This document shows positions 2,402 through 27,984 of a DNA stretch of 36,331 nucleotides, piece by piece (position 1 is the first letter of the stretch; every line of letters starts with the position of its first letter). The stretch comes from Acidimicrobiia bacterium (GTDB lineage Bacteria > Actinomycetota > Acidimicrobiia > Spongiisociales > JAOTWH01). Both the position numbers and the translations under genes were made by a program. The DNA is taken from NCBI GenBank assembly GCA_041621915.1, contig JBFJZV010000002.1, positions 1-36,331 of the forward strand, given 5' to 3'. Below the pieces are notes generated by a model, which did no database searches, was not told where the DNA came from, and was given only the letters and a program-made list of their open reading frames with translations.

Positions 2402-2409
2402 CCGATCAG

Positions 2410-2441
2410 CCGGGGCGCGGCCCGCTCGGGTCGCGCCCCGG
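2410..2441 (+). terminator. GC-rich hairpin downstream of the M28 gene (candidate intrinsic terminator without a T-tract)
   Basis: CCGGGGCGCG (2410-2419) pairs perfectly with CGCGCCCCGG (2432-2441). The 12-nt interior can extend the stem (GCCCG/CGGGT). It begins 9 nt after the stop codon. Confidence 0.45.
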
Positions 2442-2496
2442 CCGCGCGCTCGGCGGGGGGTTGGGCCGCAGCCGGCCCGGGGGTACAGTCGGGCGC

Positions 2497-4945: not shown

Positions 4946-4997
4946 CACGGTAGAGACGCCCGCCGGGCGCTCCGGGTTCCCGAGGTACCGTCGCACC

Positions 4998-5816
4998 TTG
5001 CACGTCGAGCCCTTCACGGACCAGTACGACGCCGTGGCCGCGCTCATCGGCCGCTCGGCGAGCGAGCTGCGTGCCCGGGTGGCGCCCCGCTGGCTGGCGA
5101 TCGACGCCGGCCGGGCCGTCGCAGTCGCCACCGCGACCACCCGGCCGGACCGGCGGACGTTCGTGTCGCTCGCCGGCGACCTGGCGGCGTACGGCGAGCT
5201 GATCGAGGCTGTCGGCGCCGCGGCCCGGCGACCGCTGCACGCTCATGCGGACTGTGCCGACGCAGAGCTGCGCGGGGTGCTGGCGGCGGCCGGGTTCGTC
5301 GAGGTGATGGTCGCCGAGTCCTTCCGGGTACGGTTCGCCGACGCGCTCGACGCGCTGCACAAGGCCCGCACCGCTCCCTGGTTCACGCTCATCGCCGCCG
5401 GGGAAGCCGATCACGGACGGCTCTTCACACTCGACAACGCGATTCGCCAGGACGTGCCCGGCGCCGACGGATGGCGCGGCGACCGCGCGATGTTCCTCGA
5501 TGAGCTCGCCGACCCCGCTGCCTATGCGGTCGCCGTCGACGAGACCAACGGCGAGTACGCCGGGCTTGCCCGTGTGTGGCGCAACCCGTCGGGTCCCCGG
5601 TTCGGGCTCGTCGGCGTATTGCGGCAGTACCGGGGCACGCGGCTGGGGCCGGCGCTGATCCGAGGCGTGCTGGAGGAGGCCGCCGGCTGGGGACACGAGT
5701 CGTTCGTGACCGAGACCAGCCTGACCAACCGTGCCGTCCACCCCCGGCTGGCCCGGCTGGCCGCCGAGCGACTCGGGCAGTGGGCGCAGATGAGGCGCCC
5801 CGTTAGCCTGAGGTGA
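4998..5816 (+). CDS. GNAT family N-acetyltransferase
   Basis: The C-terminal half RFGLVGVLRQYRGTRLGPALIRGVLEEAAGWGHESFVTET fits the acetyl-CoA binding motif A (Q/RxxGxG/A). The start is uncertain: TTG 4998 was chosen because sequence upstream is antisense to the serpin start region. The stop overlaps the next gene's start (GTGATG). Confidence 0.65.
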   Translation: MHVEPFTDQYDAVAALIGRSASELRARVAPRWLAIDAGRAVAVATATTRPDRRTFVSLAGDLAAYGELIEAVGAAARRPLHAHADCADAELRGVLAAAGFVEVMVAESFRVRFADALDALHKARTAPWFTLIAAGEADHGRLFTLDNAIRQDVPGADGWRGDRAMFLDELADPAAYAVAVDETNGEYAGLARVWRNPSGPRFGLVGVLRQYRGTRLGPALIRGVLEEAAGWGHESFVTETSLTNRAVHPRLARLAAERLGQWAQMRRPVSLR

Positions 5817-7771
5817 TGCTCACCGACTACACCTCGATGACGCCTGAGCGCGCCCGGGGCGTCGTCATCATCGCCATTGCCGAGGGCGATGCGCTGGTCG
5901 CCGCCGTCCTCGCCGCCGCCGGGCCCCGCACGTACGCCAACACGCTGGCGCCGCTCGACCGGGCGCTGGTCGCGGTCAACGACGCCTACGGAGTCGGCGG
6001 TTACATGGCCAACGTCCACCCCGACGAAGCGGTGCGGGCCGCAGGCGCCGAAGCCGAAGAGCTGCAGCAGAAGTGGCTCTCCGACCTGGCGTTCAACCGC
6101 GAGCTGTACCTGGCCGTCGAGAGCTACTCGAGCACCGACGAGGCAGCGGGGCTGAGCGGAGAGAGGCGGCGCAACCTCGACTTCTTGCTCCGCGACTTCC
6201 GGCGGGCCGGCCACGGACTTGCCGACGGCGAGCGTGCCGAGGTGCAACGGCTGCGGCGGCGGCTCATCGAGCTGCAGGTCGCCTTCGACCGCAACCTGAA
6301 CGAGTGGGAGGACGGCCTCGACGTCACCCGGGACGAGCTGGCCGGGTTGCCCGACGACTACGTCGCCCGGCTCGGCCCGGGCGAGGCCGACGGCACGTTC
6401 CGCGTGACGGTCGCCTACCCGGACTACGTCCCCGTGATGCAGGACGGCGCCGACCGTGACCTGCGCCGCCGGCTACAGCACAAGTTCCTCAACCGGGCGG
6501 CGGAAGCCAACGTCCCGCTGCTCGACGAGGCCGTGGCGGTGCGGTGGGAGATCTCGGCCCGGCTCGGCTACCCGACGTTCGCCGAGTACGCGATGGAGCC
6601 TCGTATGGCCGACCCGCCTGCGGTCGAGGAGTTCTACGGATCGCTCATCCCGGGCCTCACCGAGGCCGGCGAGCGGGAGCTGGCCGCACTCCAGGAGCTG
6701 ATGGGCGCCGACCACCCGGGGGAGAGCCTCCAGCAGTGGGACTGGATGTACTACGACACGCAGCAGCGCAAGGCCGACTACGGCGTCGACGACCACGAGG
6801 TCGCCGCCTACTTCCCGCTCGAGGCAGTGGTCGATGGCATGTTCTCGATCTGCGGCGACATGTTCGGCATCGACTTCGTGCCGGTGGCCGAGCCGCAGGC
6901 GTGGCACCCCGACGTCGCCGTGTACGAGATCCGGGAGCGGGCAACCGGCGATCTCCTTGCCCACTACTACGCCGACCTCCACCCCCGGCCCGGCAAGTAC
7001 TCCCACGCGGCGTGCTGGCGGCTGCGCGCCGGCTTCCAGGAGGAAGGGGGCTACCGCCGGCCGGTGGCGGCGGTGGCGGCCAACTTCACCAAGCCCACCG
7101 CCGACACCCCGTCGCTCCTCAAGCACGACGAGGCGGTCACCCTGTTCCACGAGTTCGGGCACGTGCTCCACAACGCGCTCACCCGGGTGGAGCTGCCCCG
7201 CTTCTCCGGCACCCAGACCGAGCGGGACTTCGTGGAGGCGCCCTCGCAGATCATGGAGAACTGGATGTGGGAGCCCGAGGTGCTGCAGCGCTTCGCCCGC
7301 CACCACCGCACCGGGGAGCCAATCGCCGCCGGCCTGGTCGAGCGGATGGTGGCCGCCCGCAATCAGAACGTGGCACTGAAGACGCTGCGGCAGGTCTTCT
7401 ACGGCCGATTCGACCTTGCCCTCCACGGCGGCGACGGGCCCCGGCCTGCGTCGGAGGCCCACGCAGCGACCGCCGGGCTGACACTGGTGCCGCACCACCC
7501 CGGCACCCGATTCGCAGGCAGCTTCGGGCACATGATGTCGGACGGCTACGTGGCCGGCTACTACGGGTACCTGTGGTCGGAGGTGTACGGCGACGACATG
7601 TTCTCGGTGTTCACCCACGCCGGCGTGCTCGACCCCGAGGTTGGGCGCCGCTACCGGGAGGCGATCCTCGCCCGAGGCGGCACCGTCGACGGCGCCGACC
7701 TGCTGCGCGACTTCCTGGGCCGCGAGCCCTCACCCGACGCGTTCCTGCGGAAGATCGGCCTCTCCGAATAG
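5813..7771 (+). CDS. M3 family metallopeptidase (oligopeptidase / peptidyl-dipeptidase Dcp-like)
   Basis: 652 aa. The zinc motif is HEFGHVLH and a downstream EAPSQIMENW Glu ligand region is present. Length is typical for M3. Start is GTG 5813 or ATG 5816, overlapping the GNAT stop codon. Confidence 0.9.
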   Translation: MMLTDYTSMTPERARGVVIIAIAEGDALVAAVLAAAGPRTYANTLAPLDRALVAVNDAYGVGGYMANVHPDEAVRAAGAEAEELQQKWLSDLAFNRELYLAVESYSSTDEAAGLSGERRRNLDFLLRDFRRAGHGLADGERAEVQRLRRRLIELQVAFDRNLNEWEDGLDVTRDELAGLPDDYVARLGPGEADGTFRVTVAYPDYVPVMQDGADRDLRRRLQHKFLNRAAEANVPLLDEAVAVRWEISARLGYPTFAEYAMEPRMADPPAVEEFYGSLIPGLTEAGERELAALQELMGADHPGESLQQWDWMYYDTQQRKADYGVDDHEVAAYFPLEAVVDGMFSICGDMFGIDFVPVAEPQAWHPDVAVYEIRERATGDLLAHYYADLHPRPGKYSHAACWRLRAGFQEEGGYRRPVAAVAANFTKPTADTPSLLKHDEAVTLFHEFGHVLHNALTRVELPRFSGTQTERDFVEAPSQIMENWMWEPEVLQRFARHHRTGEPIAAGLVERMVAARNQNVALKTLRQVFYGRFDLALHGGDGPRPASEAHAATAGLTLVPHHPGTRFAGSFGHMMSDGYVAGYYGYLWSEVYGDDMFSVFTHAGVLDPEVGRRYREAILARGGTVDGADLLRDFLGREPSPDAFLRKIGLSE

Positions 7772-7775
7772 CCGC

Positions 7776-7964
7776 TCAGTCGAGGGGCCGGGTCGGGACG
7801 AGCGTCACCGACTCGGGGCCCGCCTCGAGGTTGGCCGGCCGTGTGCCGTAATGCCGGCCCACGACGCGATCGTCGATGCACTCGCCGCGGATCTCGCTGC
7901 GGAGGTCCTGGTAGGCGTCCCAGGACATCGGGATGCGGTCGCCCGGACGGAGCTTGGTCTGCAT
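7776..7964 (-). CDS. small hypothetical protein (62-65 aa)
   Basis: ORF MQTKLRPGDRIPMSWDAYQDLRSEIRGECIDDRVVGRHYGTRPANLE has strongly G/C-biased third positions. An alternative GTG start lies at 7973. I recognised no family. Confidence 0.4.
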   Translation of the reverse strand: MQTKLRPGDRIPMSWDAYQDLRSEIRGECIDDRVVGRHYGTRPANLEAGPESVTLVPTRPLD

Positions 7965-8092
7965 GCCGTGCACCGTACACCCCTTCCGCCTCCCCTTCGG
8001 GTCCGTGGACACCACGTTGCCGCGACAGAAACCCGGAAACCGCGCAGCGGCCGTCGGCGTCTCAGTGCGGTCCCACCGAAAAGGAGCACACC

Positions 8093-8590
8093 ATGTCCAC
8101 GGGCACCATCGAGCGCCCCCCGTCCACCGAGCCCGGCCGCCGCAACCGGCGCGTGTTGGCGCTGGTCGCCGTCGCGGCCGTCGCAGTCGTTGCGTTGATC
8201 GTCGCCGCGTTGCTGATCGGCGGCAACGACCCCGAGCCGCATGCAGCCCCGCTGGAGCTGTCCCTCGGAGAAAGCGACGCCCTGGCGTCGTGCCTGGCCT
8301 TCGACGTCGCCACGCTCGCCGGCATGTCGCCGGCGCTCGAGGGCACCGTCACGGCCAAGGACGGCGAGCGCATCACGCTGGCGGTCGACCGCTGGTTCAC
8401 CGGCGGCGACGCCGAGGAGGTCGCGCTGATCGGCCCTCATGGGCTCGAGGCGCTCATCGGCGGCATCGACTTCCAGGTCGGCAAGCAGTACCTGATCACC
8501 GCCGAGAGCGGCCAGGTCAACTACTGCGGCTACAGCGGCGAGGCCACCCCCGAGTACCGGGCCGCCTTCGAGCAGGCCTTCGGGGCCTGA
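8093..8590 (+). CDS. membrane-anchored hypothetical protein
   Basis: ATG at 8093 is preceded by AAAGGAG (8080-8086). An N-terminal TM helix VLALVAVAAVAVVALIVAALLIGG is followed by a roughly 120-aa extracytoplasmic domain with two Cys. Confidence 0.7.
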   Translation: MSTGTIERPPSTEPGRRNRRVLALVAVAAVAVVALIVAALLIGGNDPEPHAAPLELSLGESDALASCLAFDVATLAGMSPALEGTVTAKDGERITLAVDRWFTGGDAEEVALIGPHGLEALIGGIDFQVGKQYLITAESGQVNYCGYSGEATPEYRAAFEQAFGA

Positions 8591-8594
8591 GCCG

Positions 8595-9602
8595 TCACCT
8601 GCGGCCGGCGAGCCCACGGTGGGCCGCCGGCCGCTCTCCGTCTGGCGTGACCCGGGGCCGCTCGGTCCGGAAGAACCGGAAGAAGCTCCACGTGGCCAGC
8701 GCAGTCAGGAGATGCCAGATCGCGTGCGCCTGCACGACGGAGTCCGGGGCGCACCACTCGTGCTCGGCTGTGCCGGTCAACCAGATGGCGTAGGCGGCGA
8801 GGAACGACCCCACCCCCAGCCAGAACCACGGCACGTAGCGGCGCCGCGCCGGGGCAGGGTGGCGGGCGGCGAGCCCCGGCAGCCACATCGCGGCCATCCA
8901 CCAGTACTCACCGGGCGCAGCGGCCATGTCGGCGGGGGTGATGCCGAACACCGCGGCGACGGCGAACCCCACCAGCCCCGACGTCCACCGGAAGCCCGGC
9001 GACCACCAGCGGTACAAGGCCTCCGACACCAGCCACAGCCCGATCGAGGCCCCGAACAGGTCGAGGCCGATGCCGAGGTCCGGGCCGAAGAACCAGTAGC
9101 CAGCCGCGTAGGCGGCCAGCAGGCTGCCGTAGGTCCGGAACAGGGCGCGGTCGGTCCAGCGCCCAAGCGCCGCCACGTTCACCAGCCACGGGATCAGGAT
9201 GAACCCCACCATGGAGACGTTGTCGATCCACGCCCCGAAGAAGGTGTGGGTGCCGTGCATCACCATCGACCCGGGCCCCAGGAACACGACCGCCGCCGCA
9301 TAGAGCAGCGCCACCGACTGATTGCCGACGAACCGGTTGACGTGCGGCCGACCCGCCGTTTCGTCACGGGCCAGCACGGCGAACATGGCCAGCCCGGCGA
9401 CGACGAACCCGAGGTTGCCGAGGGTGTTCACCGGCTCCCGCAGGAACCCGCCGCTCACCCGCTCACACCAGCGGGACACCTCGCCGATCGCCTGCTCGTT
9501 GGCCGCCGGCGGCCCCCACCCTGCGATGCCGGCCAGCCCGAAGGCCGCCCCAAACGCCACCAAAGCGCCGGCGGCGACCGCGAGGGGGGTCGTGGTGCGC
9601 AC
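8595..9602 (-). CDS. ceramidase-like (alkaline ceramidase/PF05875-type) integral membrane protein
   Basis: Multi-pass membrane protein with REPVNTLGNLGF, GPGSMVMHGTHT..DNVSM and C-terminal HAIWHLLTALA. This is the EPxNTxSN / GSxxxH / HxxWH pattern of the ceramidase family. The GTG start at 9602 is inferred. Track ORF 8595..11189 extends upstream as antisense of the CE4 gene. Confidence 0.7.
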   Translation of the reverse strand: MRTTTPLAVAAGALVAFGAAFGLAGIAGWGPPAANEQAIGEVSRWCERVSGGFLREPVNTLGNLGFVVAGLAMFAVLARDETAGRPHVNRFVGNQSVALLYAAAVVFLGPGSMVMHGTHTFFGAWIDNVSMVGFILIPWLVNVAALGRWTDRALFRTYGSLLAAYAAGYWFFGPDLGIGLDLFGASIGLWLVSEALYRWWSPGFRWTSGLVGFAVAAVFGITPADMAAAPGEYWWMAAMWLPGLAARHPAPARRRYVPWFWLGVGSFLAAYAIWLTGTAEHEWCAPDSVVQAHAIWHLLTALATWSFFRFFRTERPRVTPDGERPAAHRGLAGRR

Positions 9603-9785
9603 GGCGTCACGGTAACCACACCGCCGCCACTGCTCTTCGTACACGAAATGACTACCGGTTGCGCGGACAAGGCCCGGTCGGAGTGATATCGTGCGGCTTG
9701 CGGGGGAGTCTGCTCGTAGCGCACGCAGCATGCGTTGCCTTCGGCAGTCCGGCGCACGTGAGGCAAGCACAGGGGAGTGTCGGAC

Positions 9786-11258
9786 ATGGATTACGCGGCC
9801 CGCCGCGTGCGACGCCGTCGGCTCGCGACCGCGGCCTGCATCGCCCTGGCCTCGATGGTCCCGGTCGCGACCGCGCCTGGGGCGACCGCACGGGCCGCCG
9901 GTGAGGGATGCCCCTCCGGGCCGGTGGCGTTCACCTTCGACGACGGTCCGGTGCCCGGACGGACCGATCGGGTGCTCGACGTGCTGGCTTCGTACCAGGT
10001 GCGAGCCACGTTCTTCGTCAACGGGCACAACTTCGACCGCGACCCGAAGGTCGTGCAGCGCATTGCGGCGGAAGGCCATGTGATCGCCAACCACACGTGG
10101 GGCCATACCCAGCTCGCCCGGGCCGCCGATGCAACGATCCGGCGTGAGGTGCTCCGCAACGTCGAGTCTGCCGAGGCAGCGGGGGTCACCATGGTGCCGT
10201 TGGTGCGGCCGCCCGGCGGATCGACCAGCGCCCGGGTCGAAGCCGTGCTCCGCGATCTCGGCATGACGCAGGTCATGTGGACGGTCGACCCTCAGGACTG
10301 GCGGGGCCACTCGGCGTCCACACTCGTCGGCCACGTACTGCCCCGCCTGTACTCGGGCGCCAACGTGCTGTTCCACGACGCCAGCCCGGCGAGCCAGGTG
10401 GCGCAGGCTCTCCCGGCGATCCTGACCGCCATGGCCGAGCGGGGCTTCTGCCCCGGCCTGTTCGACGCCGACGGGGTGGTTGTGCCTGCCGCCCATCTCG
10501 AGCCCGTACCCGTCGACCCGGGACCGGCATGTGTGGGGCCGGCGCCTTGCGACACGCTCGGGTTCATCGACGCCGCAGCCCGCTGGCAGGTGTTCGACGG
10601 GTTCGCTCAGGGCGCCGAGGCCCACACGTTCACCTTCGGGAACCCGGGCGATCGGCCGTTGGCAGGCGACTGGGACTGCGACGGGGTCGAGACCCCGGGC
10701 GTGTACCGGCCCTCCACCGGCCAGGTGCACCTGCGGAACTCCCTCTCGCCGGGCACCGCCGACCTCTCGTTCACGTTCGGCGACCCGGGCGACGTGCTGC
10801 TCGCCGGCGACTGGGACGGCGACGGCTGTGACACGCTCGCCGCATACCGCAGGTCGGAAGCCCGCATGTATGTCACCGACCGCCTCGGGGCCGGCTCGGC
10901 CGAGACGGTGTTCACGTTCGGCGACCCGGGCGACGTGCCGTTCGTGGGTGACTTCGACGGCGACGGGCGAACCGATCTCGCTCTCCACCGCCCGACCACC
11001 GGGCTGATCGCCTGGCGACTCGAGCAGCGGGCCGGTCCCGCCGACGGCGGGTTCACCTACGGGAACCCCGGCGACCGGGTCGTGGCGGGCGACTGGGACG
11101 GCGACGGGATCGACACGCCGGCCGCCTACCGGCCCTCGACCGGCGTCTGGTACGCCAAGCTGACCAACACGGGCGGCGCAGCCGATCACACCGTGCGTCT
11201 TGCGGCGCCGGCGGCGGTCACGTTCGTGGTCGGGGCGTTCGGCTTGCCGCCGGGCTGA
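9786..11258 (+). CDS. secreted polysaccharide deacetylase (CE4/NodB domain) with C-terminal FG-GAP/VCBS-like 'GDWDGDG' repeat module
   Basis: AGGGGAG (9771-9777) lies 8 nt upstream of ATG 9786. A signal peptide is present. NodB motifs are FTFDDGP, NHTWGH and RPPGG. From about 10560 there are four repeats of F-x-FG-x-PGD-x4-GDWDGDG-x-DT-x3-YR, ending in VGAFGL. Confidence 0.9.
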   Translation: MDYAARRVRRRRLATAACIALASMVPVATAPGATARAAGEGCPSGPVAFTFDDGPVPGRTDRVLDVLASYQVRATFFVNGHNFDRDPKVVQRIAAEGHVIANHTWGHTQLARAADATIRREVLRNVESAEAAGVTMVPLVRPPGGSTSARVEAVLRDLGMTQVMWTVDPQDWRGHSASTLVGHVLPRLYSGANVLFHDASPASQVAQALPAILTAMAERGFCPGLFDADGVVVPAAHLEPVPVDPGPACVGPAPCDTLGFIDAAARWQVFDGFAQGAEAHTFTFGNPGDRPLAGDWDCDGVETPGVYRPSTGQVHLRNSLSPGTADLSFTFGDPGDVLLAGDWDGDGCDTLAAYRRSEARMYVTDRLGAGSAETVFTFGDPGDVPFVGDFDGDGRTDLALHRPTTGLIAWRLEQRAGPADGGFTYGNPGDRVVAGDWDGDGIDTPAAYRPSTGVWYAKLTNTGGAADHTVRLAAPAAVTFVVGAFGLPPG

Positions 11259-11293: not shown

Positions 11294-12748
11294 ATGGGAC
11301 TTCGACCGGCGGAAGCGAGGAGCCGGCGCAAGAGGGCGGGGGCGATCGCGGTGCTGGTGGCTGTGATGCTGCTTGCAGCGCCGCCGGCCCTCGCGGCGTC
11401 GGACATCGGCCTCGTCGATCCCGCCGACGGTCGCTGGCACCTCAGGGACGCCGGCACCGGGCTCGTGACGAGCTTCTTCTACGGCGACCCGGGGGACGTG
11501 CCGTTCACGGGCGACTGGGACTGCGACGGGGTCGACACCCCCGGGCTCTTCCGACCGTCGGACGCCTTCGCGTACCTCCGCGACGCCAACTCGACGGGCA
11601 TCGCCGGCATCCGCTTCTTCTTCGGGAACCCGTCCGACGTGCCGCTGGCCGGTGACTTCGACGGCGACGGCTGCGACACGGTCTCGCTGTACCGGCCGGC
11701 CGAACAGCGGTTCTACATCGTCAACGAGCTAGGCAGCGACGACGGCGGCCTGGGCGCCGCCGACTACACCTTCGACTTCGGCAACCCGGGCGACACGCCG
11801 TTCGTTGGCGACTTCGACGGTGACGGCGTCGACGAGGTCGGTCTCCACCGGCAGTCGACCGGCCTCGTCTACTTCGAGGACGCGCTGACGCCCAACGCGG
11901 GCGGCGGCGCCGCGGACCACGAGTTCATCTTCGGGGACCCCGGCGACCGCTTCGTCGCCGGCGACTGGACCGGCGCCGGGAACTCGACGCCGGCGGTGTT
12001 CCGGCCCACCGACTGCACCTTCTACCTCAAGCACGCCAACTCGCTCGGCGTCGCCGACGACACCGTCGCTTTCGGCGAGCCCGCCTGGCTGCCGGTCGCC
12101 GGCGATTTCGGCCTCACCGGGGGCGCCCCGCCCGGCCCGCCATGCCCGCAGCCGCCCGCTGCGTTCTCGGCGACCTACCGGCTGACGTTCACGTCCACGT
12201 GGAGCGCCGCCACCCATCCGGTCAGCTTCCCGGCCGTCCCGCACTTCTCGGGACTCATCGGCGGCGCCCACGACGCCCGGGTCAGCTTCTGGGAGTCGGG
12301 CGGGCAGGCCAGCCAGGGCATCGAGGACATGGCGGAGCTGGGCTCCAAGACGGCGCTCCGGGCGGAGGTCGAGGCGGCCATCGCAGCCGGCACGGCCCGC
12401 TCCGTGATCTCGGGCGGCGGCATCGGGCTGTCGCCAGGCTCGGTCGCCGTCACCTTCACGGTCGATCGCGACCACCCGCTCGCCACCGTCGTCGCGATGC
12501 TCGCCCCGAGCCCCGACTGGTTCGTCGGCGTGTCCGGGCTGGATCTCTTCGAGGGCGGCACCTGGGCCGAGCGCAAAGTGGTGACGCTCTACGGCTACGA
12601 CGCCGGCACCGACAGCGGTCCCAGCTACGGGTCGCCCGACGCCGACACCGACCCGGCGGAGCCGATCGCCCGGCTCGACACCCCGCCGGTGGGCAACGGC
12701 GCCCCGGTGGGCGAGTACGTCTTCGAGCTGGTATCGGTAGGTCCCTGA
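11294..12748 (+). CDS. secreted repeat-module protein with C-terminal spondin_N domain
   Basis: The signal peptide ends in ALAAS. Five FGxPGD..GD(W/F)DGDG repeats span about 11400-12115. After a PPGPPCPQPP linker comes a spondin_N-like domain (YRLTFTSTWSAATHP..HFSGLIGGAH..AELGS..MLAPSPDWFVGV..GYDAGTDSGPSYGSPD). Confidence 0.9.
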   Translation: MGLRPAEARSRRKRAGAIAVLVAVMLLAAPPALAASDIGLVDPADGRWHLRDAGTGLVTSFFYGDPGDVPFTGDWDCDGVDTPGLFRPSDAFAYLRDANSTGIAGIRFFFGNPSDVPLAGDFDGDGCDTVSLYRPAEQRFYIVNELGSDDGGLGAADYTFDFGNPGDTPFVGDFDGDGVDEVGLHRQSTGLVYFEDALTPNAGGGAADHEFIFGDPGDRFVAGDWTGAGNSTPAVFRPTDCTFYLKHANSLGVADDTVAFGEPAWLPVAGDFGLTGGAPPGPPCPQPPAAFSATYRLTFTSTWSAATHPVSFPAVPHFSGLIGGAHDARVSFWESGGQASQGIEDMAELGSKTALRAEVEAAIAAGTARSVISGGGIGLSPGSVAVTFTVDRDHPLATVVAMLAPSPDWFVGVSGLDLFEGGTWAERKVVTLYGYDAGTDSGPSYGSPDADTDPAEPIARLDTPPVGNGAPVGEYVFELVSVGP

Positions 12749-19951: not shown

Positions 19952-19971
19952 GGTGACAGCCCCTCGTCACC
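19952..19971. terminator. short hairpin between convergent genes (possible bidirectional terminator)
   Basis: GGTGAC (19952-57) pairs with GTCACC (19966-71) around an 8-nt loop. It lies between stop codons at 19938 (+) and 19967 (-). Confidence 0.3.
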
Positions 19972-20569
19972 TCCGGCGGAACACGCCGAAGAGCTCGCCG
20001 TCCTCCTCGTCGAGGCTCTCCAACTCCAGGCCGTGGTCGGCGAAGCCGAGGAGCTCTCGGCGGGACAGCGGCCACGGCGGGCCCACCGGTTCCTCGTCTT
20101 CGGGCCGCCCGTTGGCCACCGCCAGCAGCGTGCCGCCCGATCCCACGGGGGTGGCGACCGCAGCGACGACCTGGCCCCGCAGGTAAGGCGGCAGCGACTG
20201 AACGGTGCGCACGTCGACCACCAGCTCGAAGGCCCGCCGCCACTCGGCCGGGAGGTCGAACAGGTCGGCGACGACGTAGTCGACCTCGCTGGCGGGGAAT
20301 CGGTCCCGCGCCCAGCCGATGGCAGCCGGGGAGGCGTCGAAGGCGGTGACCGCGCAGCCCCGGCGGGCGAGCTCTTCAGCGTCGTCGCCGAGCCCGCTCC
20401 CCACGACCAGCGCCCGGCCTAGCGAGGAACGGCGAGCGTCGAGCCATCCGACGAGCCAGGGGTTCGGCTGCAGCGATGCCCAGGGGATCGCGCGCGGGTC
20501 GCGGTGCGCCCCGGCGTACATCACGTCGAAGAACTCGGACGCCTGCTCCCTGCTCAATTTGCCTGCCAC
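19967..20569 (-). CDS. class I SAM-dependent methyltransferase
   Basis: The SAM-binding motif I is ALVVGSGLGDDAEELARRGCAVTAFDAS, and the acidic loop is VVADLFD. The GTG start at 20569 is inferred; the upstream part of the track ORF is unlikely to be coding. Confidence 0.75.
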   Translation of the reverse strand: MAGKLSREQASEFFDVMYAGAHRDPRAIPWASLQPNPWLVGWLDARRSSLGRALVVGSGLGDDAEELARRGCAVTAFDASPAAIGWARDRFPASEVDYVVADLFDLPAEWRRAFELVVDVRTVQSLPPYLRGQVVAAVATPVGSGGTLLAVANGRPEDEEPVGPPWPLSRRELLGFADHGLELESLDEEDGELFGVFRRR

Positions 20570-20652
20570 AGAGGGCAAGGTAGCGCGGTCGGGTCCTCGT
20601 CCTCCGTCGCTTGGGACCAAGGTCTCTGCTCTCAGGGCAGGCGATGCCGATA

Positions 20653-20674
20653 GCTTGTGAAATGAATCACAAGC
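20653..20674. promoter_or_regulatory. perfect 8-bp inverted repeat (GCTTGTGA-N6-TCACAAGC) in a divergent intergenic region
   Basis: Read directly: 20653-20660 GCTTGTGA, a 6-nt spacer AATGAA, then 20667-20674 TCACAAGC. The patch is locally AT-rich and lies 30 nt upstream of ATG 20704. Confidence 0.3.
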
Positions 20675-20703
20675 AATGCGGAGCCACAAGGAGGCACCAC
20701 GAA

Positions 20704-22438: not shown

Positions 22439-22459
22439 GTGAGGCGGTTCGTCCCTCAC
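22439..22459. terminator. hairpin between convergent genes
   Basis: GTGAGG (22439-44) pairs with CCTCAC (22454-59) around a 9-nt loop. It spans the stop codon of the minus-strand lipoprotein gene. Confidence 0.3.
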
Positions 22460-23262
22460 ACGCAGAGCCCGTCCACGACGCCCCGGAAGCAGAACGCGGT
22501 CTCCTCGACGCTGTGGAGCGAGAAGCTCTGGCGGTCGTCACTGGGCCGGCCGAACACGTGCAGCCGGGCGCCGCTCACCGAGTCGTCGCCGAAGCCCACG
22601 ACGTCGTAGGTCACCTCGCCGAGGTCGTGCTCACCCCGGGGCGCCGCGACCAGCACGGCCTTCGCCGAGTCGTCGCCGAAGGTGACGGCGTCGGCCACGA
22701 GGAGGCCGAGCTCATCCAGCGTCGGGGCGGTAGGCCGCTCGCCGAGGAGCTGGATCACCGCCGCAGTCGAGTCGACGGTGGCGCCCAGGCGGGACAGGAA
22801 CCGCAGGTTGGCCCAGCCCACCGTGCCGCCGGCGTCCACCTCGACCCAGATGGCGCCGGCGTCGAGCCGGCGGGCTCGGCCGGTGGCCACCACGTCGGTT
22901 GCGAGGGGGCCGAGCCGGTCGGCGATCTCGTGGTCGACCCCCGGGCCGCGGCGCACGTTGAGCACGTCGTCGTGGGCGACGCCGACGACGGCGAGGCGGG
23001 CACCCCGCTCCGGCCCGAGCTCGAACGGCTCGCCGGGCAGGCCCGGCGCCTGGGTGGCGGGAGGCGCCAGGGTCGTGGGAGGCGCTTGGGTCGCCGGCGG
23101 CGCCTGCGTGGTGGGGGGTGCAGGAGCGGTGGGGTCGGGAGCGGCTTGCGTCGTGGGCGGCGCCTGGGTGGTCGGGTCGGGAGTAGCGGCCTGATCGGTG
23201 TCGCCGCAGGCGACGGCGAGCGCGGCAACCACCGCCAGGATGGCAATCAGTCGGAGTCGCAT
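22456..23262 (-). CDS. lipoprotein with Pro/Thr/Gln-rich linker and SH3-like domain
   Basis: AAAGGTGAGG lies upstream of ATG 23262. The lipobox is ALAVAC. The linker has PPTTQAP-type repeats. The segment VLNVRRGPGVDHEIADRL..IWVEV..GWANLRFL resembles bacterial SH3 domains. Confidence 0.7.
   Translation of the reverse strand: MRLRLIAILAVVAALAVACGDTDQAATPDPTTQAPPTTQAAPDPTAPAPPTTQAPPATQAPPTTLAPPATQAPGLPGEPFELGPERGARLAVVGVAHDDVLNVRRGPGVDHEIADRLGPLATDVVATGRARRLDAGAIWVEVDAGGTVGWANLRFLSRLGATVDSTAAVIQLLGERPTAPTLDELGLLVADAVTFGDDSAKAVLVAAPRGEHDLGEVTYDVVGFGDDSVSGARLHVFGRPSDDRQSFSLHSVEETAFCFRGVVDGLCV
23044..23181 (-). repeat. degenerate tandem coding repeat (PPTTQAP / PPATQAP units)
   Basis: The peptide PDPTTQAPPTTQAAPDPTAPAPPTTQAPPATQAPPTTLAPPATQAP is encoded by reiterated ggcgcctgggtgg-like units on the + strand. 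Confidence 0.7.
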
Positions 23263-23393
23263 GGTCCTCACCTTTCGCGGGTTGCGGGTGGCTTCTCCCA
23301 TAGGCAACCGCGGCGAGGTCACACCGCCCTCACCGCCGTGCAACGGTTGCGTTACGAGCGACGACCGGCCGCGGCCGGGTAGCGTCGGGGGCC

Positions 23394-24422
23394 ATGGCCG
23401 CATTGACCGTCCTCGACGAGGGCCGCCCGACAGAGGTGGAGTTCGCCCTGGCCGACGGCGTCGTCCGCATCCTTCGGTCGATGGTCGAGGCTGCGGTGGG
23501 CTGGCGGCTCGAGGATCGGGGCCTGTGCCGCGGCGACATCTGCATCCCCGTGCGCGACCCGGCGCTGGTCACCGCGGATGGGGTCTCGCTGCCGGGACTG
23601 GCCGCAGCCCTCCACCGGCCGCTGGCGCTCGACACCGACGAGCGGGCCGCCTACCTCGGGCCGTCCGCGGCCGACCGGGCGCCGCTGGCCGCCGGGTCGC
23701 CGGCGCCGCCGTTCTCGCTGCCCGATCTCGACGGGAGGCTCCACTCGCTGGCCGATCACCGCGGGTCCAAGGTGCTGCTGGCCGCCTGGGCGTCGTGGTG
23801 AGGATGCCGCTACGACCTGCCCGGGTGGCAGGAGATCCATGAGGAGCTGGCGGGGCTGATGGTCATCACGGTCGCCCTTGACCGGGCCGCCGACGCCCGC
23901 CGCTGGATCGAGCGGGCCGAGCCGACCCACCCCAGCCTCGTCGACGAGGGCCACGTCCTGGCGGACCGCTACCACATGGTCAACGTGCCCACCGTGGTGT
24001 GGATCGACGAGGACGGCCGGATCGCCCGTCCCAACGACGTGGCGTTCACCACCGAACAGGGCGGCAAGTACGCTGGGGTGTCGACCGCCGACCAGATGGC
24101 GCTGCTGCGCCGGTGGGTGGCGGGCGAGGCGCCACCCGCCGCCCCGGCCATGCCGGCGTCGGGGGCAGGGGGGCCGACGGCGGAGGCGGGGCTCGCCCGC
24201 GCCCACTTCGGCCTCGGCTGGTGGCTGTTCGAGCAGGGTCGGGGGGACGCCGCCAACCGCCACTTCTCCGTCGCCGGCGAGCTGGCGCCCGAGGACTTCA
24301 CCATCCGGCGGGGCACGATGCGCTTCCGCGGCGCCGACCCGTTCGGCCCCGAGTTCATGCAGATGGTCGCCGAGTGGCATGCGGGCGGGAATCGCTACTA
24401 CCTGCCGCTGCCCGTCGAGTAG
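23394..24422 (+). CDS. ResA/TlpA-like thioredoxin-fold protein with in-frame TGA at the active site (putative selenocysteine; motif W-A-S-W-U-G-C); alternatively a pseudogene
   Basis: Track ORFs 23394..23801 and 23859..24422 share one frame and are separated only by TGA 23799-23801. The joined product shows the redoxin layout: PAPPFSLPDLDG..GSKVLLAAWASW[TGA]GCRYDLP...VPTVVWIDEDGRIARP. GC3 is high on both sides of the TGA, and a hairpin follows it. Confidence 0.6.
23802..23838 (+). promoter_or_regulatory. candidate bacterial SECIS-like stem-loop immediately downstream of the in-frame TGA
   Basis: The lower helix is GGAT (23802-05) with ATCC (23835-38). The upper helix is CCTGCC (23816-21) with GGCAGG (23827-32). 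The apical loop is CGGGU (23822-26). The upper stem starts 14 nt after the TGA. Confidence 0.4.
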
Positions 24423-24430
24423 CCGCGCAG

Positions 24431-26155
24431 GTGCGCATCGTCGGTATATCGGCGTTCTTCCATGAGTCGGCGGCGAGCCTGCTCGTCGACGGGGAGCTGG
24501 TGGCGGCCGCCGCCGAGGAGCGCTTCACGCGGGTGAAGCACGACTCGCGGCTGCCCGTCAACGCCTACCGCTACTGCCTCGAAGCGGCCGGCCTGGGACC
24601 CGGCGACGTCGACGCCGTGGCGTTCTACGAGGACCCGGCGAAGAAGGCCGAGCGCCAGCACGCCCACGGCTTCACCGCACCACCGGGCCAACCGGACGCC
24701 CTCCACCCGGGCCGGCCCGAGCGGATGATCCGCGAGGTGCTCGGCCACGAGGGGACGATCCTCACCTTCGATCACCACCTCAGCCACGCCGCGAGCGCCT
24801 ACTTCTTCTCAGGGTTCGACGAGGCGGCGATCCTCACCGTGGACGGGGTGGGGGAGTGGGCGACGACGACCTACGGCACGGCGTACGGCGCCACGATCGA
24901 GCCGTTCGAGGAGGTTCGCTTCCCGCACTCGCTGGGCCTCTTCTATGCGACCGTCACGGCGTTCCTGGGGTTCCGGGTCAACGACGGCGAGTACAAGGTG
25001 ATGGGGCTCGCCCCGTACGGCGAGCCCCGCCTCGCCGACGCGTTGCGGTCCGTGGTGCGCTCCGGCCCGGGCGGGATGATCACCCTCGACATGGACCACT
25101 TCGACTTCGTCGACCGGATGTTCACCGACCGGCTGCCGGCGCTGCTCGGCGTGCCGCCCCGGGAGGAGGGGGCGCCTTTGGAGCATGCCCACGCCGACGT
25201 CGCCGCCAGCGCCCAACTCGTGCTCGAGGAGATCCTGCTCGAGAAAGCCCACCACCTCGCCGAGCGCACCGGTTCGGCGAACCTCTGTTACGCCGGCGGC
25301 GTCGCGCTGAACTGCGTCGCCAACGGGCGGCTGCTCCGGGAAGGGCCCTTCGCCCACCTCTTCGTCCCGCCTGCGGCCGGCGACGACGGCGGCAGCCTGG
25401 GCGCCGCGGCGCTCGCCCACGTCAGGCTCAGCGGCGAGCGGCCGGCAGCCAAGCCGATGACCCGCGCCGACCACGGCCCAGCCTACGACGCGGGCCGCGC
25501 CCTCGCAGGGAGCGGCCTCGCCGCCGAGCCCTACGTGCCGGATTCAGTGGCCGCCCGCCTCGAAGCGGGCCAGGTGATCGGGTGGTACTCGGGACGCATG
25601 GAGTTCGGCCCGCGTGCGCTGGGCCACCGCAGCATCCTCGCCGACCCCCGCGACCCGGGCATGCGGGAGCGACTCAACCGCCAGGTCAAGCGCCGCGAGG
25701 CGTTCCGTCCGTTCGCTCCCAGCGTGCTCGCCGGCCACGCGTCCGAGCACCTCGACCTCGACCATCCGTCGCCGTTCATGCTCGAGACGTGCCAGGTGCG
25801 GTCGCCGGTCGGCCTGCCGGCGGTCACCCACGTCGACGGGTCGTGCCGCCCCCAGACGGTCGATCCTGCCGTCGAGCCCCGTTACGCCGAGCTGCTCGCG
25901 GCGTTTCACCGCCGCACCGGCTGCCCGGTGCTGCTGAACACCTCGCTGAACGTTGCGGGAGAGCCGATCGCCTGCACACCCACCGACGCGTTGCTGACGA
26001 TGGCTGCAGCCGGGCTCGACGCGCTGGTTCTGGACGACGTCGTCGTCGAGAGGGCGGCGCTGCCGGCCGGCCTCCCCGAGCTCGTGGCGGCGTGGGACAC
26101 CGTGCCCCCGGCCGTGTTCGGCGCGGCGGCGCGCAACCTGTACTCGTTCGCATGA
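24431..26155 (+). CDS. carbamoyltransferase (NodU/CmcH family)
   Basis: GTG at 24431, 8 nt after the upstream stop. The N-terminus VRIVGISAFFHESAASLLVDGELVAAAAEERFTRVKHD is the family signature. The C-terminal domain carries RPFAPSV and HVDGSCRPQTV. Confidence 0.9.
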   Translation: MRIVGISAFFHESAASLLVDGELVAAAAEERFTRVKHDSRLPVNAYRYCLEAAGLGPGDVDAVAFYEDPAKKAERQHAHGFTAPPGQPDALHPGRPERMIREVLGHEGTILTFDHHLSHAASAYFFSGFDEAAILTVDGVGEWATTTYGTAYGATIEPFEEVRFPHSLGLFYATVTAFLGFRVNDGEYKVMGLAPYGEPRLADALRSVVRSGPGGMITLDMDHFDFVDRMFTDRLPALLGVPPREEGAPLEHAHADVAASAQLVLEEILLEKAHHLAERTGSANLCYAGGVALNCVANGRLLREGPFAHLFVPPAAGDDGGSLGAAALAHVRLSGERPAAKPMTRADHGPAYDAGRALAGSGLAAEPYVPDSVAARLEAGQVIGWYSGRMEFGPRALGHRSILADPRDPGMRERLNRQVKRREAFRPFAPSVLAGHASEHLDLDHPSPFMLETCQVRSPVGLPAVTHVDGSCRPQTVDPAVEPRYAELLAAFHRRTGCPVLLNTSLNVAGEPIACTPTDALLTMAAAGLDALVLDDVVVERAALPAGLPELVAAWDTVPPAVFGAAARNLYSFA

Positions 26156-27984
26156 GCGGCGTGGCCGTCTGGCGGCCATCGGAGGTCGACGGCGAGCCGG
26201 CGTTCGTCCGGCCGGCGCCGGCGCCGTTCGGCGATCACCATGCCGCCCGCCGGGTGATCCCGGCCGCCAAGGCGCCCGGGACGCAGCGGGTGTGCCTATT
26301 CGGCGAGTCCGCCGCCGCCGGCTACCTGTACGCGCCGCACCTCACCCCGGCGCAGGTGCTGGCGTCGCACCTGGGCGGCGGCTGGGAGGTCGTCGACCTG
26401 GCCCGCACGAACGAGACCCTCGCCGGGCTCGTCACCACAGCCACCGAGGCCGCCAGCCGCCTCGACCCCGACGTGCTGGTGGTGCTCACGGGCAACAACT
26501 GGAACCTGCTGGAGACGCCGGAAGTGTCTCCCTATTACCCGAGCGCCGCCGGGCGAGCCGAGTACGCGGCTGCGTTGCGAGAGGCGGGCCCGGCCGGTCC
26601 CATCGAGTTGGCCGGACGCCGCCGGCTGCGCAAGGCAGGAGACGCGCTGGCTCACCTGGCGTCGCTCGGTCTGCCGGTCGTGCTGGTGGTGCCGGACGTC
26701 AACGTCGCCGATTGGGAGGCGCGCCAGCCGCCCCCGTGGCTCCCCGGCGGCGCGACCCCGGCCTGGCACCGCCACTACGCGGCGGCCGCCGACGCGTTGG
26801 CGGCCGGGACGCCGGCCGTTGCCCGCGAGCACGCCGAGCGGATGATCGACCTCGACGGCGGCCTCACGCCCTCACCGTTCCGGTTCCTCGCCGCCGCCGG
26901 CGTTGCCGGCGCGGCGGCCGCGGAGGCAGCCGCGGACCACTACGCCACGATGTGCCTGCTCGGCGCCCCACGGGCCGCGCCGATCGACCAGGAGGTGCAG
27001 CGGCGGGCAGCCGGCCACCACGGTTTCCGGCTGGTCGACCTGCCTGCGCTCTTCGCGGGCCGCCACCTCTTCCTCGACTACTGCCACATGACGGCCGAGG
27101 GGATCGGCGTGGCCATGGCCGCCGTCGCCTCCGTAGTGCTGGGGCGGGGCGTGGGCCCGCGGGACCCGCGGCCGCCGCCCGCGGTGGAAGCCACCGCCCG
27201 GCTGGGGGCGGCCATCCACACCGCCCACCGGCACCTCCCGGTCGATCCGCGCAACGACACCGTCGCCGAGTGGCTCCGGCGGGCGCTGGCCGCCGACCCG
27301 GGAGTTGCTGCGGCCATGCTCGACGTGGCCGAGGCCAGGACCGCCCTCGTGCCCGAGGTGCTGACGCCGGCGCAGCAGCGCAACCTGGCGTCGCCCCATC
27401 GGCTCGGCTACCAGCACGGGTGGCGCTTCGACCACGTGGACGCCGTCCTGCTCGACGCCATGGCGGAAGTGCTCGGCGGGGAGGCCGAGGCGGCGCTGGC
27501 CCCGCGTGCCGCCGGGGCCGTTCCGGTGGAGCTGGTGGCGCCGCCGGATTACCTGTGGGAGCCCGCTTCCCGGTTCCATCCCGAGGTGGCGCCCTTCGCC
27601 GACGTGACCGTCCCGCCCTTCCTCCGATGCCCGTGGCCTTCGGTCTCCCTCGCGTTCGTGGCCGGCGGCGCAGTCGATCACGCAGTCGCGGTCACCGCCC
27701 GACTGCCGCGGCATGGCGCGCCAGGCGACGCGTCGATCACGGTCAACGGCATCGCCTTGGGCAGCACCGCCCTCGGCAGGCGATGGACCTCCTCGACCGT
27801 GCGGGTGCCGGGGGAGGTAGTGCGGCCCGGGCTCAACCGGCTCGACGTGGCCTGGCCGGAGCTGCCGCCGGTGGGCGACGCTGCGTTGGCCGATGTGGTC
27901 GACAGGCTGGGGCGAGGGCTGCCCGCCGACCTGCATCCGGTGTTCGGCGAGCTGTGGTCGGTGCGGGTGCGGCGAACGTCTTAG
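26152..27984 (+). CDS. SGNH/GDSL hydrolase-like protein with long C-terminal extension
   Basis: The start overlaps the carbamoyltransferase stop (ATGA at 26152-26155). Candidate block I is CLFGESAAAG, block III is LTGNNW and block V is LDYCHMT. The remaining roughly 350 aa have no family I recognise. The upstream part of track ORF 24856..27984 is a shadow frame. Confidence 0.65.
   Translation: MSGVAVWRPSEVDGEPAFVRPAPAPFGDHHAARRVIPAAKAPGTQRVCLFGESAAAGYLYAPHLTPAQVLASHLGGGWEVVDLARTNETLAGLVTTATEAASRLDPDVLVVLTGNNWNLLETPEVSPYYPSAAGRAEYAAALREAGPAGPIELAGRRRLRKAGDALAHLASLGLPVVLVVPDVNVADWEARQPPPWLPGGATPAWHRHYAAAADALAAGTPAVAREHAERMIDLDGGLTPSPFRFLAAAGVAGAAAAEAAADHYATMCLLGAPRAAPIDQEVQRRAAGHHGFRLVDLPALFAGRHLFLDYCHMTAEGIGVAMAAVASVVLGRGVGPRDPRPPPAVEATARLGAAIHTAHRHLPVDPRNDTVAEWLRRALAADPGVAAAMLDVAEARTALVPEVLTPAQQRNLASPHRLGYQHGWRFDHVDAVLLDAMAEVLGGEAEAALAPRAAGAVPVELVAPPDYLWEPASRFHPEVAPFADVTVPPFLRCPWPSVSLAFVAGGAVDHAVAVTARLPRHGAPGDASITVNGIALGSTALGRRWTSSTVRVPGEVVRPGLNRLDVAWPELPPVGDAALADVVDRLGRGLPADLHPVFGELWSVRVRRTS

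Follow-up and report, generated by a model that had tools for sequence, protein, structure and literature searches.

A TGA-interrupted redoxin gene of an Acidimicrobiia bacterium probably encodes a single selenoprotein with a U-G-C active site

Two adjacent open reading frames in a stretch of Acidimicrobiia DNA (36,331 nucleotides in all, referred to here as the window) raise the question of whether they are two genes, one broken gene, or one gene whose internal TGA is translated as selenocysteine (Sec). The two frames, 23394-23801 and 23802-24422, form a single frame, and its sole interruption is one TGA. As a previous sequence-only reading had proposed, read-through of this codon gives 342 residues with WASW-[TGA]-GCRYDLPGWQ at the junction, and both sides look coding, with a third-position G+C of 0.88 upstream of the TGA and 0.95 downstream. 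The TGA is the only stop of its kind in the window: at no other does a plausible frame show a strong coding signal and stay otherwise open for 60 codons on each side. Neither half of the window copy contains a further stop or a frameshift, and a search of the window and of the flanks of related loci gave no other convincing TGA-split gene. TGA is also the commonest stop in the window, ending 12 of its 19 genes, so recoding at this one codon must be local. From comparison with related sequences, we estimate a probability of about 90% that the region is one gene for a soluble selenoprotein, with the UGA decoded as Sec. The features are collected in Table 1.

Table 1. Features of the predicted selenoprotein gene and its downstream neighbours (positions in the window)
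Feature	Position	Strand	Details or basis
Predicted complete selenoprotein gene	23394-24422	+	342 codons, one of them the predicted Sec codon; stop codon TAG (24420-24422)
N-terminal beta-rich domain, residues ~1-99	23394-23690	+	Conservation and Cys-form model
Conserved N-domain Cys pair	C45, 23526-23528; C50, 23541-23543	+	Motif GW.L.P.GLCR.D.C.PV
Thioredoxin-fold (ResA/TlpA/DsbE-like) catalytic domain, residues ~100-225	23691-24068	+	Pfam, PDB profiles, Foldseek
UGA, predicted Sec136, attacking redox residue of U-G-C	23799-23801	+	Alignment and codon counts
TGC, Cys138, probable resolving partner of Sec136 (U-G-C)	23805-23807	+	Invariant in alignment
SECIS-type hairpin, 17 nt	23816-23832	+	Stem 23816-23821/23827-23832 (CCUGCC/GGCAGG), apical loop 23822-23826 (CGGGU)
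C-terminal helical domain, residues ~226-342	24069-24419	+	TPR-like hairpin, then DFTIRRGTM...YYLPLP
Carbamoyltransferase	24431-26155	+	Pfam Carbam_trans_N/C; 8-nt gap after redoxin gene
GDSL-like gene	26152-27984	+	Lipase_GDSL_2 below cutoff; ATGA overlap with carbamoyltransferase

We then compared the codon at this position among relatives. A genome search with the single protein gave no related loci, and an alignment query was needed to obtain them. The resulting 87 loci come from species-representative genomes and MAGs, the MAGs being labelled Acidimicrobiia, Rokubacteria/Methylomirabilota, Binatia, Chloroflexota and Myxococcota. They carry TGA in 70 cases, TGC in 15, TGT in two, and TAA or TAG in none. 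The closest relatives (60-74% amino acid identity) all have TGA, and more distant homologues carry Cys. In all 108 full-length homologues, which are 342-375 residues long and begin at a Met equivalent to that of the window gene, the same column is occupied by the leading Cys of an invariant SW-C-GC-RYDLP motif. PDB profile alignments to ResA set W-C-G-.-C against W-C-x-x-C, in agreement with the earlier proposal that the TGA occupies the position of the nucleophilic Cys with one residue fewer in the motif. In the protein collection searched, the closest relatives were represented solely by C-terminal fragments about 197 residues long; all 11 of the closest database homologues are such fragments, called from a Met just past the motif, and their DNA contains the same in-frame TGA.

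These counts bear directly on whether the TGA could be a sequencing error or a strain-specific pseudogene mutation, with TGC changed to TGA at 23801. The two codons are one base apart and Cys forms exist in the family, but this TGA recurs in 70 loci, among them the four MAGs of the closest species and members of many other lineages, is never replaced by TAA or TAG, and is accompanied by a conserved hairpin that the Cys forms lack. TGC in close relatives together with an unconserved hairpin had been named beforehand as the pattern that would speak for such an event, and the opposite was found: the closest relatives have TGA and keep the hairpin with compensatory changes. We regard this explanation as effectively refuted.

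The hairpin begins 14 nt past the TGA, and its nucleotides encode D-L-P-G-W-Q-E. The 6-bp stem with its CGGGU loop is present as first described. The published bSECIS model asks for a loop of 3-9 nt with G in the first two loop positions, a stem of 4-16 bp, a UGA-loop spacing of 16-37 nt and an MFE <= -7.5 (PMC13188914, Fig. 2A). The window hairpin, with a 5-nt loop (G at position 2, followed by G), a 6-bp stem, 20 nt from UGA to loop and -9.3 kcal/mol, falls within all four constraints, and its position and apical loop thus fit a bacterial SECIS as suggested. The single-sequence fold of 23795-23850 was insignificant (z = -1.03); the evidence was accordingly taken from comparison. Among 65 distinct Sec forms, all six pairs are kept in 55 and five pairs in the other 10, whereas only 2 of 16 Cys forms keep all six. 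The inner 5 bp show no broken cell in 54 distinct Sec-form sequences. Since the hairpin overlaps the strongly conserved DLPGWQ, much of its sequence conservation could reflect constraint on the protein. Support specific to the RNA consists of six compensatory cells at two pairs (CG to UA five times, GC to UA once), with a covariation score reached by 0 of 500 shuffles, and of the contrast between Sec and Cys forms. In five sequences a Leu codon change from CTG to TTG is paired with a Gln codon change from CAG to CAA, synonymous on both sides; there are also two G-U intermediates and one CTT/AAG variant, the latter at the cost of Q to K. The mismatched combination CTG..CAA is found in no Sec form and is present in L028, the nearest Cys form. 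A loop G[G/U] signature is found in 65 of 65 Sec forms versus 4 of 16 Cys forms. Together, the alternation of TGA and Cys and a hairpin conserved in TGA forms and degraded in Cys forms support the interpretation of the gene as a selenoprotein gene, and we propose that the hairpin acts as a bacterial SECIS, presumably by way of SelB.

Compared with the E. coli fdhF/fdnG-type SECIS and the bSECISearch consensus, the element is likewise a stem-loop in the coding region just 3' of the UGA; it shares with them a small apical loop with G and then G/U, and a spacing within 16-37 nt. It differs in that conservation is confined to a short stem of 5-6 bp, and neither a lower helix nor a bulged U is conserved. 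The lower GGAT/ATCC helix (23802-05/23835-38) of the sequence-only reading did not hold up: 58% of its cells are paired, it shows no covariation, and it is absent from the RNAalifold prediction. A scan of the window against Rfam at gathering thresholds gave no match, which says little because bacterial SECIS elements are poorly represented there.

The sequence downstream of the TGA is under constraint. The substitution pattern relative to homologues indicates purifying selection on both halves of the gene; the downstream half is the more conserved one. It shares 60-74% identity with relatives, and many of the codon changes are synonymous (in 205 codons compared with relative L002, 50 changes are synonymous and 51 non-synonymous). 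Gene callers annotate relatives as split, as would be expected if a 135-residue N-domain protein ended at the TGA and an independent C-terminal protein began at the ATG at 23859. Such an arrangement is hardly credible in view of what lies between. The 19 codons from the TGA to this first downstream ATG encode a conserved stretch (GCRYDLPGWQEIHEEL) that takes in the resolving Cys, which is invariant, and the beginning of helix alpha-1. The internal start is itself unconserved, the relatives being called from different Mets where the window has Ile; splitting the thioredoxin fold at the active site would deprive it of strand beta-1 and of the nucleophile; and the Cys-form homologues are single polypeptides.

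We looked for the genes that decoding of UGA as Sec would need. None of selA, selB, selD and tRNA-Sec was found in the window or in any of the redoxin loci, and scans for tRNA genes, covering the window and 50 loci, likewise gave no tRNA-Sec. The lone tblastn match to SelA, SelB or SelD of E. coli or Tsukamurella, in locus L008, was rejected as TypA/BipA. Among the matches listed by a SelA-motif DNA scan and by a scan led by Acidimicrobiales SelA, no assembly was in common with the redoxin loci. Other Acidimicrobiia MAGs do carry selA, selB, selD and tRNA-Sec. In addition, an Acidimicrobiaceae MAG has selA-selB-selD immediately downstream of the redoxin gene of locus L216, whose product is only 31% identical in protein sequence and which has the identical 17-mer hairpin at the same offset.

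The lack of sel genes and tRNA-Sec in the window is what one would expect if the lineage had once decoded the TGA as Sec and the source genome had recently lost the machinery, leaving translation to stop at 23801. One relative, L001, indeed shows apparent decay, its upstream half being frameshifted and a TAG lying two codons past the hairpin loop. We nevertheless consider such an inactivation very improbable for the window copy, which is intact in both halves, retains its third-position bias, has an unbroken hairpin within all bSECIS constraints, and differs from its relatives in a way that fits purifying selection on the downstream half. Alternatively, the UGA might be read as Trp or Cys by a near-cognate or suppressor tRNA, with no selenium involved. 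Hairpins can stimulate read-through of this kind, and Sec insertion here is a prediction. Against this, the recoding falls exactly on a catalytic Cys column, which is the signature of Sec/Cys pairs; in its loop G[G/U], spacing and size the hairpin agrees with the SECIS model for SelB binding; the sister gene that shares this hairpin forms part of a selA-selB-selD cluster; and the family is catalogued as a selenoprotein family (PMC2398784, PMC13188914). These points leave selenium-free read-through an exceedingly small chance.

With Sec as the preferred reading of the UGA, the expected course of translation can be outlined. The hairpin, with its G-rich 5-nt apical loop, would recruit SelB-GTP-Sec-tRNA(Sec) to the ribosome, where, by the E. 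coli paradigm, this complex would compete with release factor 2 at the UGA, so that the codon is decoded as selenocysteine. In the predicted product the usual W-C-x-x-C of the ResA/TlpA-type fold is shortened to W-U-G-C. Sec136 would be the attacking nucleophile, and Cys138, which aligns to the second Cys of the ResA CxxC with a one-residue deletion, would resolve the intermediate into a selenenylsulfide.

The predicted soluble protein of 342 residues has three parts, the catalytic fold being flanked, as we envisage it, by an N-terminal beta domain, which carries a second conserved pair of cysteines (C-x4-C), and by a TPR-like helical domain at the C-terminus. The fold is well supported: Pfam matches AhpC-TSA at residues 101-211 (E 7e-17) and Redoxin at 100-219, with PF00578 as the best match, and a PDB profile of ResA (1st9) matches residues 102-225 with E 6e-23. 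Structural modelling used the closest Cys form, P0001, as a proxy 51% identical to the window protein; for this model, Foldseek gave ResA/DsbE at a TM of 0.77-0.85 on the target. The N-terminal domain matched no Pfam family, and no PDB match was obtained outside the Trx domain, but it is modelled confidently as strands in the proxy, and G36, W37, G43, C45, R46, C50 and P52 are conserved at >= 90%. TPR similarity in the C-terminal domain, at residues 255-304, is weak. Residues of this domain that are invariant in the Sec-form clade include A268, R269, G275, W277, L297, A298, P299, D301 and F302, followed by R305, R306, G307, T308, M309, Y335, Y336, L337, P338 and L339. In a simple hydropathy scan no signal peptide or membrane anchor was apparent (maximum 19-residue KD hydropathy 1.24, with an acidic N-terminus), and the protein is thus probably cytoplasmic. 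There it would probably work as a thiol/selenol oxidoreductase or a peroxidase-like enzyme.

The catalytic fold, and the placing of the nucleophile behind a conserved Trp where helix alpha-1 begins, are shared with ResA, TlpA and DsbE (CcmG) (PDB 1st9, 1jfu, 3gl3). These proteins are Cys-only, have C-x-x-C, consist of a single domain, are membrane-anchored or secreted, and serve in maturation of cytochrome c or copper centres. In contrast, the window protein has a predicted U-G-C, no apparent anchor and two extra domains. Its scores stay below the curated NCBIfam cutoffs for ResA (58.1 versus 170 bits), TlpA (31.3 versus 230) and DsbE (21.9 versus 123). A family of UGC-motif redoxins is listed as selenoproteins in the literature (PMC2398784, PMC13188914), and shares with the window protein the thioredoxin/AhpC-TSA fold, a U-G-C motif containing one Sec, and numerous Cys homologues; this likeness (example MDE0950781.1) is one of motif and domain family, PF00578 being the family quoted in 2008.

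A product name given in the sequence-only reading proved to be a real model, NCBIfam NF041054.1 'ResA-like WAxxUGC motif-containing protein' (WAxxUGC_long, equivalog), and a literature search for 'WAxxUGC' found no papers. The proposed match stood in part. The motif W-A-S-W-U-G-C fits WAxxUGC, but the score of 232.7 bits lies below the cutoff of 300, placing the window protein in a sister clade rather than among strict members. It covers only profile positions 11-207 of 354, with about 208-354 unmatched. The cutoff is likewise missed by six other window-type Sec-form clades (243-264 bits) and by four Cys forms (202-267 bits), whereas L216, a true member and our positive control, scores 455.8 bits over positions 2-351. 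The window protein and NF041054 are alike in the N-terminal domain, the thioredoxin fold, W-A-x-x-U-G-C, the similar length and the identical SECIS-type hairpin at the same offset; they differ in the C-terminal region, and L216 also has an insertion of about 35 residues after the fold.

Most likely, then, the gene is real but ordinary, belonging to a selenoprotein family already catalogued. We see some room, though not much, for the window-type clade being a distinct selenoprotein subfamily uncaptured by curated models (about 345 residues, C-terminal ARAHFGLGWW...DFTIRRGTM...YYLPLP). C45-x4-C50, in an N-terminal domain packed on the thioredoxin fold, might in that case form with U136/C138 an intramolecular redox relay or a four-ligand metal or selenium site, with chemistry unlike that of ResA/TlpA, and the protein may be recruited in this lineage to a carbamoyltransferase/GDSL/MbtH tailoring cluster.

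The value of the result is mainly practical, as it concerns the annotation of a gene that gene callers routinely halve; at least 70 loci carry it with the in-frame TGA. Every window-type clade tested against NF041054 stays under the threshold, and automatic annotation is therefore likely to go on dividing the gene in two. Lowering the NF041054 cutoff, or building a separate model for the sister clade, would mend the annotation and sharpen estimates of selenium use in these soil and aquatic lineages. Knowledge of Sec decoding itself is unchanged, but the locus adds a well-supported case of a compact bSECIS, strongly conserved and retained by two families that share only 31% protein identity, and it points to an uncharacterised three-domain U-x-C redoxin.

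Finally, the redoxin gene had been placed at the head of an operon with the carbamoyltransferase and the GDSL-like gene. The gene placement is as described, but this neighbourhood occurs only in the closest lineage: homologues of the neighbours lie beside the redoxin only in L002-L005, not in any of the remaining ~80 loci, and the operon was rejected as a feature of the family. In the window itself, the two downstream genes are probably co-transcribed with the redoxin gene.

The redoxin gene proved to be a single frame, as the sequence-only reading had it: the ORF 23394..23801 stops at the TGA at 23799-23801, and the frame then stays open until the TAG at 24420-24422, giving a read-through product of 342 residues (...KVLLAAWASW-[TGA]-GCRYDLPGWQEIHEEL...). 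Third-position bias was, as claimed, strong on both sides of the TGA, with a G+C of 0.88 upstream and 0.95 downstream. We looked through all 36 kb of the window for stops with 60 stop-free codons on each side and strong coding composition, and this TGA was the sole qualifying stop in a plausible coding frame. Since TGA is the most frequent normal stop here, terminating 12 of the 19 genes in the window with Pfam support, recoding must be local and not a genome-wide reassignment. From these and the following comparisons we judge it very probable (about 0.9) that the redoxin gene is a genuine selenoprotein gene cut by ORF callers, as originally inferred.

The joined product, with C in place of U, had 453 homologues in a protein search. 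Among the best 120 listed, 108 were full-length matches (40-51% identical), from Acidimicrobiia MAGs, Streptomyces, Catenulispora, Kitasatospora and others, and in all 108 the TGA aligned with the first Cys of an invariant SW-C-G-C-RYDLP, which places it at the catalytic Cys position as proposed. The 11 closest matches (60-74% identical) were fragments of about 197 residues with a start Met just past the motif; this suggests that they too were cut by gene callers, and their DNA bore this out. WASW-TGA-GCRYDLPGWQ lies in a single frame in four MAGs of the closest species (L002-L005) and in a more distant contig (L006). With 80 further loci from an alignment-driven scan of species-representative genomes, the homologue search that had been called for yielded homologues with either TGA (70/87 loci) or Cys (17/87; TGC in 15, TGT in 2) in this column, and never TAA or TAG. 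TGA forms occurred in MAGs labelled Acidimicrobiia/Ilumatobacteraceae, Rokubacteria/Methylomirabilota, Binatia, Chloroflexota/Dehalococcoidia and Myxococcota, a phylum spread that may be somewhat overstated, since near-identical Acidimicrobiia-type copies in MAGs labelled Acidobacteria, Gammaproteobacteria or Boseongicola (L008, L010, L013, L014, L062) suggest mis-binning or mislabelling. Cys forms came from Microthrixaceae, Streptosporangiales, Cryptosporangium and Streptomyces.

Both halves of the gene were under purifying selection, the downstream half being better conserved; of 205 codons compared with L002, 50 differ synonymously and 51 non-synonymously. This selection, together with the TGA/Cys pattern across loci, excluded a strain-specific error or a pseudogene. 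Two independent genes were likewise excluded, because the residues encoded by the 19 codons from the TGA to the next ATG are conserved, the invariant second Cys among them, and conservation does not extend to the putative internal start.

The 6-bp stem noted earlier (23816-21/23827-32, loop CGGGU) is present. Because its local fold alone was unremarkable (z = -1.03), we tested it comparatively. At a fixed 14 nt past the UGA, six pairs form in 55/65 distinct Sec forms (TGA at the motif codon) and five in 10/65, in which only the outermost pair fails; six pairs are kept in just 2/16 Cys forms. The inner five pairs were unbroken in every cell of an alignment of 54 sequences. One stem pair was CG in 47, UA in 5 and UG in 2, with Leu CTG to TTG accompanied by Gln CAG to CAA, synonymous on both sides; another was GC in 53 and UA in 1, CTT occurring with AAG at the price of Gln to Lys. 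The mismatch CTG..CAA was absent from all Sec forms and present in the nearest Cys form (L028). None of 500 shuffles reached the covariation score, pairing fell from 96.9% to 22-67% when the 3' arm was slid, and RNAalifold independently recovered the same stem. Since the hairpin encodes the conserved peptide DLPGWQ, its sequence conservation could largely reflect selection on the protein; what speaks for the RNA itself are the compensatory changes and the difference between Sec and Cys forms. The proposed lower helix GGAT/ATCC did not hold up, with 58% of cells paired and zero covariation. The bSECIS model describes a loop of 3-9 nt, a stem of 4-16 bp, a UGA-to-loop distance of 16-37 nt, an MFE <= -7.5 kcal/mol and a G as first or second loop nucleotide, with G or U usually next (PMC13188914). 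The suggested fit to a bacterial SECIS was good in every respect (5-nt loop, 6 bp, C-G-G, 20 nt, -9.3 kcal/mol), and the loop carried G[G/U] in 65/65 Sec forms vs 4/16 Cys forms. An Anaerolineaceae MAG (L037, CAYMDV010000002.1) holds tandem UGC redoxin copies at 5289 and 6400, both with in-frame TGA and hairpin, and a tRNA-Ser(UGA) gene about 500 nt upstream of the first. Another copy (L001 9561-10588, ERZ28763718 ctg111959) has a frameshift in its upstream half and TAG in place of the Gln codon in the hairpin 3' arm (TGG TAG), reflecting either a decaying pseudogene or long-read assembly errors.

A tRNA scan of the 36-kb window found no tRNA; no Rfam family matched the window, its Pfam-annotated ORFs included no sel gene, and tblastn searches with SelA/B/D from E. 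coli and actinobacteria gave no match in the window or at the redoxin loci, save one TypA gene. We then surveyed Sec genes by a SelA PLP-site motif scan, followed by a scan led by Acidimicrobiales SelA. Indirect evidence for Sec machinery was good: among the matches listed, many Acidimicrobiia MAGs carry selA, selB, selD and tRNA-Sec. No assembly among these matches had both a window-type redoxin and sel genes. In an Acidimicrobiaceae MAG (L216, contig CAWABU010000006.1, 1.27 Mb; cluster 1722-7024), a gene encoding VLVSW-A-P-Y-TGA-G-C-AWDLPGWQ lies about 190 nt upstream of selA-selB-selD on the same strand. This redoxin is a true member of the NCBIfam family NF041054 (455.8 bits vs a cutoff of 300, full-length match), and the adjoining gene is a true selA (TIGR00474, 388 bits vs 268). 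The L216 redoxin gene has a 17-nt hairpin identical to that of the window, again 14 nt past the TGA, despite a protein identity of only 31%. A selenoprotein gene is thus embedded in the Sec-machinery cluster of L216. A complete fdnG - selD - tRNA-Sec - selA - selB cluster was also seen in Tsukamurella tyrosinosolvens (L089 4709-4804; NZ_LR134459.1, a plasmid-labelled record).

Selenoproteins of Prx/TlpA-like type with a UGC motif have been catalogued before: the GOS data contain 46 Sec sequences and 855 Cys homologues of a family entered as 'Prx-like (UGC-containing)', pfam00578 (PMC2398784). By fold and motif the window gene appears to be a member of this family. The suggested 'ResA-like WAxxUGC motif-containing protein' does exist, as NF041054, but the window protein falls below its cutoff (232.7 vs 300 bits), covering only profile positions 11-207 of 354, as do six other window-type Sec-form clades (243-264 bits) along with four Cys forms (202-267 bits); with motif and fold shared and the cutoff missed, the window clade is a sister of NF041054. 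The two are alike in N-terminal domain, catalytic domain, motif and SECIS, and differ in the C-terminal third. The redoxin gene thus joins a known kind of selenoprotein, within an under-annotated sister clade.

Pfam placed AhpC-TSA/Redoxin at residues 100-219, and in a profile search of PDB sequences only residues ~100-225 matched ResA, TlpA, DsbE and their relatives, with weak TPR-repeat similarity at 255-304. Its alignments (W-C-G-.-C vs W-C-x-x-C) agreed with the claim of one residue fewer between the redox pair. Unlike ResA and TlpA, the window protein has no hydrophobic segment, and is therefore probably cytoplasmic. The predicted structure of the closest full-length Cys form (P0001, 51% identical) was very confident (pLDDT 95.7, pTM 0.93) and showed a single compact unit of an N-terminal beta-rich domain, a thioredoxin fold and a C-terminal helical domain, of which only the central one matched the PDB in Foldseek (TM ~0.8 target, 0.35 query). 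A second Cys pair, more than 90% conserved, lies in the N-terminal domain (C45-x4-C50 in GW.L.P.GLCR.D.C.PV).

As the upstream gene lies on the opposite strand, the redoxin gene is first in its transcription unit. The operon proposed earlier stands in its gene order, gap and overlap; the arrangement, however, recurs in L002-L005 only, the other ~80 loci all lacking it, and this neighbourhood is lineage-specific and of little functional guidance.

Features of the window around the redoxin gene and elsewhere
Feature	Position	Strand	Remark
Serpin, full-length	3557-5140	-	Pfam Serpin, E 1e-98
Region of ~2 kb	7771-9762		weak coding signal only
Longest + strand ORFs of this region	7841-8590; 8619-9686	+	without Pfam match
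Long ORF	8595-11189	-	opposite to the two preceding ORFs
Spondin_N-domain protein	11294-12748	+	E 2e-46
Methyltransferase	19967-20689	-	TPMT family, E 2.8e-8; 2.7 kb from the selenoprotein gene
Upstream gene	22456-23403	-	opposite to redoxin
Redoxin gene	23394-24422	+	
Carbamoyltransferase	24431-26155		8-nt gap after redoxin gene
GDSL-like gene	26152-27984		ATGA overlap with carbamoyltransferase
MbtH-like gene		convergent	after GDSL-like gene

Serpin and Spondin_N, both present in the window, are mainly eukaryotic families and uncommon in bacteria. Bacterial homologues of TPMT, the family matched by the methyltransferase, have been linked to selenium/tellurium methylation.
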